The translations under genes and the position numbers were made by a program. 64,000 nt of DNA, from the NCBI RefSeq assembly GCF_011045215.1, contig NZ_CP049201.1; one strand, written 5' to 3'. Of the stretch, positions 6,108 to 43,552 are shown in pieces. Source of the DNA: Escherichia coli. Lineage in GTDB: Bacteria; Pseudomonadota; Gammaproteobacteria; Enterobacterales; Enterobacteriaceae. The first letter of the stretch is position 1. Each line of letters starts with the position of its first letter. The notes under the pieces are model-generated. The model was given only the letters and a program-made list of their open reading frames with translations, did no database searches and was not told the origin of the DNA.

Positions 6108-6827
6108 GTGAATGTCAATTTCTTTGTCACCTGTATTGGTGACGCCCTGAAATCAAGAATGGCACGAGACTCCGTGCTGCTACTGGAAAAACTCGGCTGT
6201 CGCGTAAATTTCCCGGAGAAACAGGGATGCTGCGGTCAGCCTGCGATCAATAGTGGTTATATCAAAGAAGCGATTCCAGGGATGAAAAATCTGATCGCCG
6301 CACTGGAGGATAACGACGATCCCATTATTTCACCGGCTGGCTCTTGCACCTATGCCGTAAAAAGTTACCCGACGTATCTGGCGGATGAACCTGAATGGGC
6401 ATCACGAGCCGAAAAGGTTGCCGCGCGTATGCAGGATCTCACCTCTTTTATTGTTAATAAATTAGGGGTAGTCGATGTAGGTGCCAGTTTGCAAGGGAGA
6501 GCGGTGTATCACCCATCTTGTAGCCTGGCCCGTAAGCTGGGGGTGAAGGACGAACCACTTACGCTGCTGAAAAATGTGCGTGGACTGGAGCTGTTGACCT
6601 TTGCTGAACAGGATACCTGCTGCGGATTTGGCGGCACGTTCTCGGTCAAAATGGCCGAAATATCCGGCGAGATGGTGAAAGAAAAGGTTGCGCACCTGAT
6701 GGAAGTCCGCCCTGAGTATTTAATAGGTGCTGACGTGAGTTGCCTGCTGAACATCAGTGGGCGATTACAACGGGAAGGGCAGAAAGTCAAAGTGATGCAT
6801 ATTGCTGAAGTGTTGATGAGCCGCTGA
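6108..6827 (+). CDS. ykgE: LutA-like cysteine-rich (CCG-domain) Fe-S oxidoreductase subunit
   Basis: 239-aa ORF from GTG 6108; two CCG motifs (KQGCCGQ, DTCCGFGG); first gene of ykgEFG. Confidence 0.9.
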   Translation: MNVNFFVTCIGDALKSRMARDSVLLLEKLGCRVNFPEKQGCCGQPAINSGYIKEAIPGMKNLIAALEDNDDPIISPAGSCTYAVKSYPTYLADEPEWASRAEKVAARMQDLTSFIVNKLGVVDVGASLQGRAVYHPSCSLARKLGVKDEPLTLLKNVRGLELLTFAEQDTCCGFGGTFSVKMAEISGEMVKEKVAHLMEVRPEYLIGADVSCLLNISGRLQREGQKVKVMHIAEVLMSR

Positions 6828-6837
6828 GGGTATAAAG

Positions 6838-8265
6838 ATGTCGATCAAAACCAGTAATACAGATTTTAAGACACGCATCCGTCAGCAAATTGAAGATCCG
6901 ATCATGCGCAAAGCGGTGGCAAACGCGCAGCAGCGTATTGGGGCAAATCGGCAAAAAATGGTCGATGAATTGGGGCACTGGGAGGAGTGGCGCGATCGGG
7001 CCGCCCAGATACGTGATCATGTTCTGAGTAATCTCGACGCTTATCTGTACCAGCTCTCAGAAAAAGTGACGCAAAACGGCGGTCACGTCTATTTTGCAAA
7101 AACCAAAGAAGACGCTACCCGCTACATTTTACAGGTTGCCCAACGCAAAAATGCCCGGAAGGTGGTGAAATCTAAATCGATGGTGACCGAAGAGATTGGT
7201 ATCAATCATGTGTTGCAGGATGCTGGCATTCAGGTGATTGAAACCGATCTGGGTGAATATATTCTCCAGCTGGATCAAGATCCGCCATCTCATGTTGTGG
7301 TCCCGGCAATTCATAAAGATCGCCATCAGATCCGTCGAGTGCTACACGAACGTCTGGGCTATGAGGGGCCGGAAACGCCTGAAGCGATGACCTTATTCAT
7401 CCGGCAAAAAATCCGCGAAGATTTCCTCAGTGCTGAAATAGGTATTACCGGCTGTAATTTCGCGGTGGCAGAGACAGGTTCGGTATGCCTGGTGACCAAT
7501 GAAGGTAATGCGCGAATGTGTACCACGCTGCCTAAAACGCATATTGCAGTGATGGGAATGGAGCGTATTGCCCCCACGTTTGCCGAGGTAGATGTATTGA
7601 TCACCATGCTGGCGCGCAGTGCCGTTGGTGCACGTTTGACGGGATACAACACCTGGCTGACAGGACCGCGCGAAGCGGGGCACGTTGATGGTCCTGAAGA
7701 GTTTCATCTGGTTATTGTCGATAACGGGCGTTCTGAGGTGCTGGCCTCTGAATTTCGGGATGTGCTGCGCTGTATTCGCTGCGGGGCTTGTATGAATACT
7801 TGTCCGGCATATCGCCATATTGGCGGTCATGGATATGGCTCTATTTATCCAGGGCCAATTGGTGCGGTGATTTCTCCGCTACTTGGCGGCTATAAAGATT
7901 TTAAAGATTTACCCTACGCCTGCTCTTTATGCACAGCTTGTGACAACGTGTGTCCAGTGCGTATTCCGCTGTCAAAACTGATTTTGCGTCATCGTCGGGT
8001 GATGGCTGAAAAAGGGATCACCGCAAAAGCAGAGCAACGGGCGATAAAAATGTTCGCTTATGCCAATAGTCATCCAGGATTGTGGAAAGTCGGGATGATG
8101 GCCGGCGCTCATGCGGCAAGCTGGTTTATCAATGGCGGCAAAACACCACTCAAATTTGGCGCGATTAGCGACTGGATGGAAGCACGCGATCTTCCTGAAG
8201 CTGACGGAGAGAGTTTCCGTAGTTGGTTTAAGAAACATCAGGCGCAGGAGAAAAAGAATGGATAA
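6838..8265 (+). CDS. ykgF: LutB-like 4Fe-4S ferredoxin-domain electron transport protein
   Basis: 475-aa ORF; two CxxCxxCxxxCP ferredoxin motifs (CIRCGACMNTCP, CSLCTACDNVCP). Confidence 0.9.
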   Translation: MSIKTSNTDFKTRIRQQIEDPIMRKAVANAQQRIGANRQKMVDELGHWEEWRDRAAQIRDHVLSNLDAYLYQLSEKVTQNGGHVYFAKTKEDATRYILQVAQRKNARKVVKSKSMVTEEIGINHVLQDAGIQVIETDLGEYILQLDQDPPSHVVVPAIHKDRHQIRRVLHERLGYEGPETPEAMTLFIRQKIREDFLSAEIGITGCNFAVAETGSVCLVTNEGNARMCTTLPKTHIAVMGMERIAPTFAEVDVLITMLARSAVGARLTGYNTWLTGPREAGHVDGPEEFHLVIVDNGRSEVLASEFRDVLRCIRCGACMNTCPAYRHIGGHGYGSIYPGPIGAVISPLLGGYKDFKDLPYACSLCTACDNVCPVRIPLSKLILRHRRVMAEKGITAKAEQRAIKMFAYANSHPGLWKVGMMAGAHAASWFINGGKTPLKFGAISDWMEARDLPEADGESFRSWFKKHQAQEKKNG

Positions 8266-8953
8266 TCGAGGCGAATTTTTGAATAACGTTGCTCAGGCAC
8301 TGGGTCGCCCGCTGCGACTTGAACCGCAAGCAGAAGATGCGCCGCTTAACAACTATGCTAACGAGCGGCTTACCGAACTTAACCAACAGCAGCGCTGTGA
8401 CGCGTTTATTCAGTTTGCCAGCGATGTTATGTTGACGCGCTGTGAACTGACCAGCGAGGCGAAGGCGGCAGAAGCTGCAATACGACTGTGTAAAGAGCTG
8501 GGAGATCAGTCGGTCGTGATTAGCGGTGACACGAGGCTGGAGGAATTAGGGATTAGCGAACGTTTGCAGCAGGAATGCAATGCCGTTGTTTGGGATCCGG
8601 CGAAAGGTGCCGAGAATATCTCGCAGGCAGAGCAGGCTAAAGTGGGTGTCGTGTATGCTGAATATGGTTTAACCGAATCGGGAGGCGTGGTTCTTTTTTC
8701 CGCCGCCGAGCGTGGGCGTTCATTGAGCCTGCTCCCGGAATCATCTCTTTTTATCCTGCGTAAAAGCACTATTCTGCCGCGTGTAGCGCAACTCGCAGAA
8801 AGATTGCATCAGAAAGCGCAGGCCGGTGAACGCATGCCGTCATGTATTAACATCATCAGTGGTCCCAGCTCAACGGCGGACATTGAGCTTATCAAAGTCG
8901 TCGGGGTTCATGGTCCGGTGAAAGCGGTGTATCTGATTATTGAGGATTGCTGA
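8258..8953 (+). CDS. ykgG: LutC-like protein (LUD domain)
   Basis: ORF 8111..8953; start set at ATG 8258 (MDNRGEFLNNVAQALGRP), 231 aa, overlapping the ykgF stop by 8 nt (ATGGATAA). Confidence 0.85.
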   Translation: MDNRGEFLNNVAQALGRPLRLEPQAEDAPLNNYANERLTELNQQQRCDAFIQFASDVMLTRCELTSEAKAAEAAIRLCKELGDQSVVISGDTRLEELGISERLQQECNAVVWDPAKGAENISQAEQAKVGVVYAEYGLTESGGVVLFSAAERGRSLSLLPESSLFILRKSTILPRVAQLAERLHQKAQAGERMPSCINIISGPSSTADIELIKVVGVHGPVKAVYLIIEDC

Positions 8954-9059
8954 GAGAGGTATGAAGTCTGGACATAAACCTGAAGAAGGCATACGAGGTT
9001 GAAAATAGCGTTAAGGACAACCTGACTTAACCCCGTTCCGTCATGGTTATGCTCCTCTT

Positions 9060-9100
9060 CTGTAAATATCCTGGCATTAGTAATGCCAGGATATTTACAG
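9060..9100. repeat. Perfect 41-bp palindrome (20-bp arms) between convergent ykgG and ykgH
   Basis: ctgtaaatatcctggcatta g taatgccaggatatttacag read directly; no U-tract on either side, so not a canonical intrinsic terminator. Confidence 0.7.
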
Positions 9101-9195
9101 TGAAAAAGACAGGCATCCATTCCTGAAAACGGGTTCCCTTCCCGGTCATTGTCACTTCAGCTTTATACAGGCACTCTCTATCAGAATGCTGTTTA

Positions 9196-9864
9196 TTACT
9201 GCCCAGAGTTTTGTTGGTATTCATCTACCATTTTTTTGACAAGGCAAAACATTACAGAAATTACAATGCTTATAAAAAATCCCAGAGCTAGGTAAATGGC
9301 AGCAGGGTATTTATTTTTTATTTCTGGTGAGCTTATAGTTACACAGCCATCACCGTTTGGATACAATGACCAGTTCCTGGTCAGGTATATCATTTTTGTA
9401 TAAAGCTCACTGTTAATTGCTGAAGGCGTTTGTATCTCATCGAGAACTTGCCTGCCATTATGGTATTCTGACGCATACCATTTGATAATAGACGCCTGCA
9501 CGTGAGATATTTCCGCTTCAGCAGTTGGTAAATCTCTCTTATCTCCTGACCATTCCAGCTTTATTTCTCTGTTCTTGACATCTGGGCTGGTGTGAAAAAA
9601 TGTAGTAATTCGCTGAATAACATCTTCAGTCATTGTGGTCTGACAGGCAAAGTTATTATTGCTATCACAGTTAACAAGTATACCTGGCGTTGTCTGGTTT
9701 ATTTTTAGGCTGTAAATCACTTTTATATTGTCTTTATTGATATACAGAAACAACAGCACCATAGCCATACATATAGCCATAATAAAAAGGATAACACGAA
9801 TCTTTTTCTTCAGATAAAATAAAATCTCAATCAGATCGATATCCTGTTTGATTTGTTCACTCAT
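9196..9864 (-). CDS. ykgH: Inner-membrane protein YkgH (one N-terminal and one C-terminal hydrophobic segment)
   Basis: 222-aa AT-rich ORF; hydrophobic stretches at residues ~22-42 and ~190-210. Confidence 0.85.
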   Translation of the reverse strand: MSEQIKQDIDLIEILFYLKKKIRVILFIMAICMAMVLLFLYINKDNIKVIYSLKINQTTPGILVNCDSNNNFACQTTMTEDVIQRITTFFHTSPDVKNREIKLEWSGDKRDLPTAEAEISHVQASIIKWYASEYHNGRQVLDEIQTPSAINSELYTKMIYLTRNWSLYPNGDGCVTISSPEIKNKYPAAIYLALGFFISIVISVMFCLVKKMVDEYQQNSGQ

Positions 9865-42652: not shown

Positions 42653-43552
42653 CTACCGTGATTCATTCCCGCCAACATCCGCGCATTCCTCCAACGCCAT
42701 GTGCAAAAATGCCTTCGCAGCGGCAGTCTGCCAGCTATTTTTCCGCCGCAACAAAACCGCCGTTCTCTCCAGTAGTGGCGGGGCAAGAGAAATAGCTTTA
42801 AGCCCGTCATGTTGTGTGGCAATCGCTGCTGGTAACAATGTGGAAAGGGAAGTGCGGCGAATCAGCTCCAGAACCGCGCTAATTGAGTTCGCCTCAATTA
42901 CCACCTGTGGATGCAGCCCCGCTTTCTCGCAGTAGTGGTCAATTTGCTCTCTGGTGGCAAATTCCGCGCTGAGCAGTACCAGTTTTTCATCATGCAAGCG
43001 ACTCAACGCCACCTGTTCATGGACTGCCAGCGGATGATGTTGCGCCACGACTAACGCTAAACTTTCTGTCAGTAAAGGAATTGCCTCCAGCTCCGGCGAA
43101 TGCACAGGCGCGAAGGCAATCCCAACGTCCAACTCGTCGCGGCAAAGCATATCCTCGATTTTCTCCTGCGACATTTCCTGTAGCTGGAGCGTGATGCCGG
43201 GATAGCGCGCATAGAAATCCGCCATTAAGGGGCCGATAAAGTAGCTCGTAAAGGTGGGGGTGACGGCGATACGCAGCGATCCTCGCGTCAGATCGGCAAC
43301 ATCATGAATCGCCCGTTTACCCGCCCCCAGTTCCTGTAACGCCCGGCTGGCGTACTGTCGCCAGACTTCTCCTGCATCAGTGAGACGAATCGTTCGCCCG
43401 CTACGGTCAAACAGCGGCACGCCTAAACTCTCCTCTAACTGGCGGATCTGCTGGGAAAGCGCAGGCTGGGAGACGTGCAACGCACTGGCGGCACGGGTGA
43501 AGCTGCCATGTTCAGCCACGGCAAGAAAATAATTGATATGTCGAGAGAGCAT
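42653..43552 (-). CDS. cynR: LysR-family activator of the cyn operon
   Basis: ORF 42653..43576; start at ATG 43552 ([41 protein letters not shown]), 299 aa; divergent from cynT. Confidence 0.95.

Follow-up and report, generated by a model that had tools for sequence, protein, structure and literature searches.

A 41-bp palindrome between the convergent genes ykgG and ykgH of Escherichia coli as a candidate 3'-terminal RNA hairpin of the ykgEFG transcript

Transcript ends located immediately after stable stem-loops that lack a U-rich tail, with rut sequences just downstream, have been described by Dar & Sorek 2018 (PMC6061677), together with a model in which Rho terminates transcription downstream, exonucleases trim the RNA back, and the stem-loop protects the remaining RNA against PNPase and RNase II. 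For REP elements located in 3'UTRs, a dual role as terminators and stabilisers has been reported (Harris et al. 2026 preprint, 10.64898/2026.03.23.713779). In addition, hairpin-encoding bidirectional terminators that operate between convergent genes in a Rho-independent manner have been described (Ju 2019; Wang et al. 2022 preprint).

Here, we compared with these systems a palindrome located in a 64,000-nucleotide stretch of E. coli DNA (hereafter the window). A preliminary description made from the sequence had proposed that this element could be a protein-binding site, an RNA processing or stability hairpin for both convergent transcripts, or a recombination-prone cruciform.

The palindrome, its setting and its predicted fold

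The locus comprises ykgEFG (6108-8953, +), a lutABC-type lactate-utilisation operon, the LUD domain PF02589 being recorded on YkgG homologues, and, on the opposite strand, ykgH, an AT-rich, Escherichia-only orphan membrane-protein gene (36% GC vs 51% for ykgEFG) whose product carries no Pfam domain. As originally described, the palindrome lies between the convergent genes ykgG and ykgH, as seen both in the ORF list and in the RefSeq annotation of near-identical loci (Table 1). Window positions were converted to MG1655 coordinates by adding 315,500, a conversion verified at the ykgE start, the ykgG stop, the palindrome and ykgH; the palindrome thereby occupies 324560-324600 in MG1655.

Table 1. 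Coordinates of the features discussed in the text (window numbering)
Feature	Position	Strand	Basis or remark
ykgEFG TSS	5983	+	K-12 TSS 321483 by coordinate transfer; inferred for the window
ykgE	6108-6827	+	ORF list, RefSeq annotation of near-identical loci
ykgF	6838-8265	+	ORF list, RefSeq annotation of near-identical loci
ykgG	8258-8953	+	ORF list, RefSeq annotation of near-identical loci
TCTT, can pair with AAGA (9106-9109) below the palindrome	9056-9059	.	folds
Left arm CTGTAAATATCCTGGCATTA	9060-9079	+	
Central base G	9080	.	
Right arm TAATGCCAGGATATTTACAG	9081-9100	+	
TG followed by the A5/T5 tract	9101-9107	.	both convergent RNAs end here: + at 9102 (up to 9107), - at 9103
Candidate rut region, C-rich, G-poor	9101-9180	+	composition; function by the Dar & Sorek model
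ykgH 3'UTR, putative Hfq-bound 3'UTR-derived RNA	9103-9195	-	ends UCUUUUU, without the palindrome
ykgH ORF	9196-9864	-	ORF list, RefSeq annotation of near-identical loci
Rho region for + read-through, antisense to ykgH	~9413	+	Adams 2021 supplementary file 2; approximate position

The palindrome (CTGTAAATATCCTGGCATTA-G-TAATGCCAGGATATTTACAG; 9060-9100) is a perfect 41-mer whose two 20-nt arms are 100% complementary around a single central base, in agreement with the preliminary description. Only 6.5e-7 hairpins (about 7e-7) with arms of at least 20 nt and a spacer of 0-10 nt are expected in 64 kb of the same composition, so the palindrome is far beyond chance and its arms were rightly regarded as unusually long. 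No other perfect hairpin in the window has arms longer than 11 bp, and no second copy of the 20-mer was found in the window, even when 3 mismatches were allowed.

Immediately after the palindrome, the sequence reads UGAAAAAG on the + strand and AAGAGGAG on the - strand, a U-tract being present on neither, and a consensus terminator scan made no call on the palindrome. Because no U-tract follows the hairpin on either strand, the element was rejected as a canonical intrinsic terminator, as had already been concluded from the lack of a flanking U-tract. A point missed in that first reading is an A5/T5 run at 9103-9107, which adjoins the right side of the palindrome and corresponds, on the ykgH (-) strand, to a U5 run immediately upstream of it.

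As RNA, the 41-mer is predicted to fold, from either strand, into a 19-bp stem with a 3-nt loop (-27.8 kcal/mol). Within an 81-nt context, the folds reach -37.8 kcal/mol (+) and -39.0 kcal/mol (-), with z = -7.2 and -8.3, respectively, and the context z-scores of the palindrome folds span -6.3 to -8.3. The stem-loop element of a canonical intrinsic terminator is accordingly present (-27.8 kcal/mol, z -7 to -8), and the 19-20-bp stem falls within the size expected for an RNase III substrate (~20-22 bp of near-continuous dsRNA), RNase III being able to accommodate ~22 bp dsRNA. A 20-bp AT-rich stem is atypical for the protective stem-loop class.

Pairing of the TCTT and AAGA segments below the palindrome would lengthen the stem, with a 5-nt bulge in the + transcript or a 2-3-nt bulge in the - transcript; this pairing is weak. 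Symmetry did not extend significantly into the flanks (anchored extension score 0 vs a shuffle mean of 1.1). Since neither flank extension nor local alignment performed better than shuffles, the unit is a discrete 41-mer, and a larger imperfect palindrome or MITE was rejected on these grounds.

Transcript ends on the two strands

All transcript data considered here were obtained in K-12, which carries an imperfect allele of the palindrome (see below); the window carries the perfect allele. The Term-seq, TRS and Rho data are given as they stand in the retrieved portions of the published datasets.

On the + strand, SMRT-Cappable-seq, in which primary transcripts are read at full length, reports in K-12 a forward-strand transcript extending from TSS 321483 to TTS 324602 and spanning b0306, b0307 and b0308. 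The TTS corresponds to window position 9102, i.e. 2 nt past the palindrome end at 324600. This TSS is represented by 228 reads, of which 40 stop at the TTS, 20 more stop no further than 50 nt beyond it, and 15 continue past it (median 78 nt), amounting to substantial read-through (35/75 reads ending beyond the TTS). The method adds an A-tail and genomic AAAAA follows 324602, which places the true end anywhere in 324602-324607; moreover, the + strand end comes from this one dataset, in which internal oligo-dT priming on read-through RNA is possible. No + strand end at the palindrome is present in the retrieved portions of the Term-seq and TRS data. A terminator formed by the inner stem (CCUGGCAU..AUGCCAGG, then AUAUUUAC) was rejected, as the scan made no call and none of the retrieved 3' ends lies 7-9 nt after it.

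Evidence for Rho action was obtained further downstream. Adams 2021 (supplementary file 2) lists a Rho termination region at 324913 (+) with a score of 6.7 (p = 2e-23), a score which is computed from 800-nt windows, whose position is therefore approximate, and which does not distinguish the source promoter of the underlying reads. As far as these data go, read-through is stopped by Rho ~300 nt beyond the hairpin. Directly after the hairpin, the + strand of 9101-9180 has a C/G ratio of 1.64, compared to 1.08 and 0.62 in the next two 80-nt blocks. Two features of protective 3' stem-loops were thus found at this locus, namely a transcript end after a hairpin without U-tail and bicyclomycin-sensitive termination downstream.

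We favour, with a probability of roughly 55%, the interpretation that the palindrome is a very stable 3'-terminal RNA hairpin of the ykgEFG mRNA which lacks a U-tract. In this model, the + strand transcript would fold into a 19-20-bp hairpin (~-21 to -28 kcal/mol depending on the allele), and a part of transcription would pass the hairpin and be stopped by Rho within ~300 nt, inside antisense ykgH. The steady-state 3' end would then be set by the hairpin, most likely through a block of 3'-to-5' exonucleases, and the hairpin may in addition pause RNA polymerase. For the window, the model presumes that the K-12 results carry over to its perfect allele. The hairpin and its stability, the two 3' ends in K-12 and the Rho sensitivity downstream are the established steps of this interpretation.

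The situation on the - strand is different. In the retrieved Term-seq data, a strong 3' end, scored at 43,492 in one condition and at 126,276 in another, maps to 324603 (-), and the TRS data place the primary ykgH terminus at 324600 (-), with a 97-nt 3'UTR and a coverage ~10x that of the CDS, which itself is covered at ~0.02. By the Term-seq position, the final U of GCCUGUCUUUUU is the terminal base of the ykgH RNA, which stops 3 nt short of the palindrome on the - strand, and 324600 (-) is the first palindrome base on that strand; the hairpin is thus outside the mature ykgH RNA in both retrieved datasets. Strand mis-assignment or a mapping artefact was rejected for this end, given that reads from a + and a - end at this coordinate would differ wholly in sequence and that four independent strand-specific methods agree on a - strand RNA. 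Within the TRS table rows covered, no corresponding end is listed for EPEC, which carries the B2-type allele.

The proposal of a processing or stability hairpin for both convergent transcripts therefore does not hold as such: it stands for ykgEFG, whose RNA ends 2 nt past the hairpin, and falls for ykgH, whose RNA ends (324603/324600) lie before or at the first base of the palindrome in the retrieved data. The 3'-end mapping that had been suggested as a check consequently gives, from the retrieved K-12 data, a ykgEFG end after the hairpin and a ykgH end before it.

A Rho score of 3.5 is centred at 324578 (-), and bicyclomycin raises - strand read-through 3.5-fold in the same retrieved data. 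According to RIL-seq studies, a putative sRNA that binds Hfq and carries a 5-nt U-tract derives from the ykgH 3'UTR; it was not detected on Northern blots with probes at 9114-9153, a region in which RNA-seq reads nevertheless accumulate. The hairpin followed by a U-tail that characterises the terminators of Hfq-dependent sRNAs was not found in the mature RNA as mapped in the retrieved data, the U5 run preceding the palindrome, and the 48 nt upstream of the U-run contain no significant hairpin (-10.3 kcal/mol, z = +0.4). In the predicted fold of the read-through RNA, the U-run pairs with AAGAG beyond the palindrome, and the mapped end is located at a bulge, at the foot of a ~27-bp stem. Candidate origins of the ykgH end are a weak factor-assisted intrinsic terminator, cleavage by RNase III or RNase E combined with Hfq protection of the U-tail, and a roadblock.

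Lineage history, alleles and rival explanations

Using a 61-nt query, the element was found in 5,141 of 5,426 complete E. coli genomes (~95%), in each case at a single site, whose two strands account for the 2 places that BLAST reports per genome. The sole plasmid matches were F' plasmids or mislabelled chromosomal records, and no match to the element was obtained in phages and viral contigs. A repeat family was rejected, no other copy being found in the window, the E. coli genomes, plasmids, phages or viral contigs; the suggested search for the same palindrome elsewhere in the genome hence returned no further site, either in the window or in the complete E. coli genomes. Membership in a known RNA family was rejected as well, given that Rfam yielded spurious eukaryotic matches only (E > 1).

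YkgH homologues retrieved from 5.8 billion proteins are all at least 75% identical, and all of those with a named source are labelled Escherichia; seemingly divergent YkgH homologues were rejected as frameshifted or IS-disrupted E. coli assemblies, and a scan of a genome collection with YkgH returned two E. coli contaminant contigs and nothing else. In other enterics, ykgG orthologues are 84-87% identical and the downstream DNA is unrelated (a short GC-rich hairpin and other genes), the palindrome being absent from that region. The suggested assessment of conservation across strains is therefore positive within E. coli and negative for the other enterics.

This distribution, together with the unrelated downstream DNA of other enterics, identifies the 242-bp spacer including the palindrome as a novelty of the E. 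coli lineage, and the spacer and palindrome appear to have accompanied an AT-rich orphan gene inserted convergent to ykgG. No target-site duplication was found, the flanks CTCCTCTT and GTGAAAAAG not being direct repeats, and a MITE or IS-end relic was rejected for want of further copies, of a target-site duplication and of mobile-element matches. As judged by genome comparison, the inverted repeat is young, present in one copy and restricted to the E. coli lineage.

Allele-specific 41-mer searches assigned 5,133 of the ~5,141 carriers to three alleles. The perfect allele (centre G or C, no difference in the arms) occurs in 2,082 genomes, i.e. in only ~40% of carriers; the K-12-type (1,876 genomes) differs by a C>T change in the left arm, a central C and a T>C change of the first base of the right arm (9081), and the B2-type (1,175 genomes) by a G>A change in the left arm and a central A. 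The allele-defining positions in the left arm are 9074 and 9075 (G>A in the B2-type, C>T in the K-12-type), and at the central position, 9080, the window has G, whereas O157 and K-12 have C and B2 has A. The K-12-type and B2-type alleles thus carry one uncompensated arm mismatch each. All arm changes are transitions that result in G.U in one transcript and A.C in the other, as reflected in the folds of the K-12 allele (-25.8 kcal/mol (+), -21.1 kcal/mol (-)) and of the B2 allele (-20.6 kcal/mol (+), -25.1 kcal/mol (-)); because the affected strand differs between the two, nothing points to a preferred strand. A parsimony argument would make the perfect form ancestral and decaying.

Column variability was measured in 19 diverse strains. 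Across the whole palindrome, 17% of columns are variable, with 31% at the apex and 7-14% in the outer arms, compared to 20% in the left spacer, 10.5% in the ykgH 3'UTR (equal to the CDS level) and 9-10% in coding sequences. Five independent arm substitutions were observed in these strains, none of which is compensated (0/5), and no covariation was found within E. coli, to which such an analysis is limited because the DNA downstream of ykgG is unrelated in other enterics. As all five arm substitutions are uncompensated, and with the palindrome as variable as the neutral spacer, selection on pairing is not detectable; per-site selection would be weak in any case, since no allele folds less stably than -20.6 kcal/mol. 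In the three major alleles, both arms are intact over their outer 14 bp, outer-arm changes being confined in the 19-strain sample to three single strains. In strain RM9088, the right arm is interrupted by an IS1.

Metagenomes yielded neither deletion nor single-arm alleles, in a search of limited power whose positive control recovered full alleles only (the same three alleles, 13 times). With three alleles covering 5,133 of ~5,141 carriers and no deletion or single-arm alleles found, the suggestion of a recombination-prone cruciform was not borne out.

These data bear on the strongest alternative, which we regard as possible, though clearly less probable than a 3'-terminal hairpin of the ykgEFG mRNA: the palindrome may be a neutral relic that arose once, e.g. 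by a template-switch inverted duplication during ykgH acquisition, the transcript ends being incidental. Its lineage-specific occurrence and its arrival with an orphan gene and a novel 242-bp spacer agree with such an origin, as do a variability equal to that of the neutral spacer, the five uncompensated arm changes, a perfect form found in only 2,082 of ~5,141 carriers (ancestral and decaying if parsimony holds), and the tolerance of an IS1 within the palindrome in one strain. On the other hand, a single mismatch barely weakens a 20-bp stem, so that weak per-site constraint is expected even of a useful element, the outer 14 bp of both arms are intact in the three major alleles, and the metagenome search, limited in power, yielded no deletion alleles. 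Irrespective of how it arose, the element coincides with the ends of two transcripts. The ykgEFG end could nevertheless be incidental to any stable hairpin, given that the arm substitutions are uncompensated and that variability resembles that of the left spacer.

An unlikely alternative is that the palindrome is part of an RNase III or RNase E site, in which a ~27-bp read-through stem, formed on either strand by the palindrome together with the UCUU/AAGA lower stem, would be cut at the bulge on the ykgH side, to give a hairpin-capped ykgEFG mRNA from one strand and a ykgH 3'UTR RNA with an Hfq-protected U-tail from the other. In the predicted fold, the - end at 9103 indeed falls where a bulge separates the 20-bp stem from the lower stem; further, ~22 bp of dsRNA fits RNase III, the ends of both strands are located on the same 5-nt tract in the retrieved data, no significant hairpin precedes the - end (an intrinsic terminator being weak at best), and the ykgH 3'UTR RNA is Hfq-associated with a U5 tail. 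The lower stem is, however, statistically unsupported, and the 3.5-fold effect of bicyclomycin on the - strand in the retrieved Rho data points to a transcriptional component. Moreover, RNase E prefers U at +2, which does not fit a cut between UUUUU and CAC.

Similarly doubtful is a reading in which the hairpin and the one-sided A5/T5 tract together form a common, essentially non-overlapping 3' boundary for the two convergent units. If true, a hairpin-capped ykgEFG mRNA would be produced on one strand and a U-tailed, Hfq-binding ykgH RNA on the other, and the 3' end of the ykgH RNA would be set by a downstream structure, through either cleavage at its foot or termination without an upstream hairpin.

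Less probable still is a hairpin-programmed bidirectional terminator of the type described by Ju 2019 and Wang et al. 2022, which would act through pausing and head-on or trailing collisions. Convergent genes, a strong hairpin, the lack of intrinsic-terminator features and sharp ends on both strands are what such an element would display. The model, however, has both RNAs crossing the hairpin and overlapping, whereas the - RNA stops before the hairpin in the retrieved data; in addition, this class is Rho-independent and Rho scores are significant here on both strands. Both genes are weakly expressed (ykgH CDS coverage ~0.02), a situation that disfavours multi-polymerase collisions. Only 1 nt separates the two ends, unless they overlap, by 5 nt at most. 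Given the footprints of RNA polymerase, the active sites of two collided enzymes should be tens of bp apart; the ends are too close for this, and a head-on collision with a polymerase paused after the hairpin does not fit.

Lastly, the proposal of a protein-binding site, i.e. a DNA site for a dimeric regulator or roadblock that would stop the ykgH-strand polymerase ~13 nt before a CCTGG...CCAGG core, is very improbable and received no direct support: although the element has dyad symmetry, the - strand RNA ends 13 nt ahead of the inner core edge (a typical roadblock geometry) and SELEX with the RpoE holoenzyme gave a weak in vitro peak in the spacer, the literature on ykgG and ykgH yielded no ChIP or binding data, the apex, the expected place of an operator core, shows the highest variability (31% of columns) and differs among the three major alleles, the usual half-sites are all far shorter than a 20-bp arm, and a symmetric roadblock should stop + polymerases before the palindrome, which they transcribe through. 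The resemblances of the palindrome to what we take to be the sigma-54 core spacing (TGGCA-N7-TGC), and of the K-12 allele to what is presumably a GntR-type motif (TGGT-N3-ACCA), are noted in passing.

Comparison with known stem-loops and terminators

Overall, a 3'-terminal hairpin of the ykgEFG mRNA would be of modest practical value, as it provides a 3' boundary for this lactate-utilisation operon, and the palindrome likewise gives a 3' boundary for the candidate Hfq-bound ykgH 3'UTR RNA. Beyond this, the locus offers a clean and datable case in which the acquisition of a convergent gene was accompanied or followed by the appearance de novo of a hairpin that, lacking a U-tract, insulates two transcription units from each other. 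As the locus also illustrates, perfect symmetry in a long palindrome is not in itself a sign of selection: only ~40% of strains have the perfect form, which apparently decays without compensation.

Among the systems compared, phage lambda sib, in which RNase III retroregulation involves a long hairpin 3' of a gene and the effect hinges on whether transcription stops or reads through, may serve as a lead, the shared trait being a long hairpin downstream of a gene. With a canonical intrinsic terminator, the palindrome shares a stable stem-loop and a 3' end near its base; unlike such a terminator, it has no 7-8-nt U-tract on either strand, and 35 of 75 reads end beyond the TTS.

Like REP elements, the palindrome is extragenic, lies in a 3'UTR between convergent genes, and combines partial Rho-dependent termination with protection of the upstream mRNA, the latter as proposed above. 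Unlike them, it is single-copy, and the MG1655 annotation shows no REP feature at its position; presumably, it also lacks the REP consensus. An assignment to REP or BIME was rejected on the basis of one site per genome and no dispersed copies.

As in the elements of Ju 2019 and Wang et al. 2022, a hairpin that does not resemble an intrinsic terminator is positioned between convergent genes. In contrast to these, only one of the two transcripts holds the hairpin, and Rho scores are significant on both strands in the retrieved data. Membership was rejected on the basis of 3' ends that do not overlap across the hairpin and of the retrieved Rho scores at 324578 (-) and 324913 (+), 3.5 and 6.7, respectively.

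The closest resemblance is to the stem-loops of Dar & Sorek, with which the palindrome shares a stable hairpin without U-rich tail, a 3' end a few nt after its foot, Rho-sensitive read-through and, within the first 80 nt downstream, a region in which C exceeds G. It differs from them in that its stem is about twice the usual length, AT-rich, perfectly symmetric, young and lineage-specific, and in that a convergent transcript ends on the same tract, before the hairpin. The ending of both convergent RNAs on the same A5/T5 tract is the only mildly surprising point. Taken together, these comparisons suggest that the element is ordinary in kind, most likely an unusually long and young 3' stem-loop without U-tract that caps a Rho-dependent mRNA on one strand.

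The ykgG downstream region and variation at the palindrome

In other enterics, a short GC-rich hairpin of the type CCGCTCTGGC...GCCAGAGCGG is found within tens of nucleotides 3' of ykgG and likewise lacks a U-tract. This hairpin is lost in E. coli, where a 242-bp spacer carrying the palindrome stands in its place. At the foot of the palindrome, a single metagenome allele carries A6 in place of A5, which points to slippage in the tract that holds the 3' ends of both RNAs.

In E. coli RM9088, an IS1A element sits within the right arm (junction ...CAGGATAT|GGTGATGCTGCC...). Since this arm is interrupted by the insertion, the palindrome can be disrupted in a natural isolate.

Coordinates of the features discussed, with L handles denoting loci of other genomes or contigs
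Feature	Window position	Other coordinates
ykgH 3'UTR (- strand)	9103-9195	
K-12 allele, apex substitutions	9072-9086	L002:421-461
TGGCA-N7-TGC, perfect allele	9072-9088	
IS1A in right arm, RM9088	9090-9091	L004:401-500
A6 allele, metagenome		L046:162-236
GC-rich hairpin downstream of ykgG, other enterics		L020:3125-3173; L021:3197-3240; L018:1410-1450; L023:3197-3251
RpoE-holoenzyme peak (K-12 spacer)	8954-9195	W3110 323832
Rho termination region (+ strand)	~9413	K-12 324913
Annotated ykgH pseudogenes		L001:3497-4165; L028:497-801

Transcripts and gene state on the ykgH side

The ykgH 3'UTR is conserved at the level of coding sequence, with 10.5% variable columns as compared to 20% in the left spacer, and its 3' terminus reads UCUUUUU, with no convincing hairpin upstream. 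In K-12, coverage of this 3'UTR was reported to be ∼10-fold that of the ykgH coding sequence, and RIL-seq has identified it as an Hfq-bound sRNA candidate, which Northern blotting did not confirm. A genomic SELEX study placed an RpoE-holoenzyme binding peak in the spacer between ykgG and ykgH, one of only seven between convergent genes in that study. A strong Rho termination region (score 6.7) has been described antisense inside ykgH; + strand transcription therefore enters ykgH in antisense orientation for ∼300 nt before being stopped by Rho.

The window copy of ykgH is intact (222 aa). Some strains have the gene annotated as a pseudogene: O157:H7 TR01, with an internal stop, and 06-00048, with a frameshift. 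E. coli ykgH sequence was also encountered on two tiny contigs (L011 and L012) whose assemblies go under the names Nocardioides malaquae and Amycolatopsis orientalis, almost certainly as E. coli contamination.

Resemblance of the apex to known promoter and operator motifs

In the perfect allele, TGGCA-N7-TGC is present on each strand, a spacing that resembles that of the sigma-54 -24/-12 promoter core. In the K-12 allele, two K-12-specific substitutions generate TGGT-ATT-ACCAAT at the apex, adjoining the lactate-utilisation operon. This sequence resembles GntR/FadR-type (PdhR/LldR) operator cores, a likeness whose occurrence beside that operon may be a coincidence.
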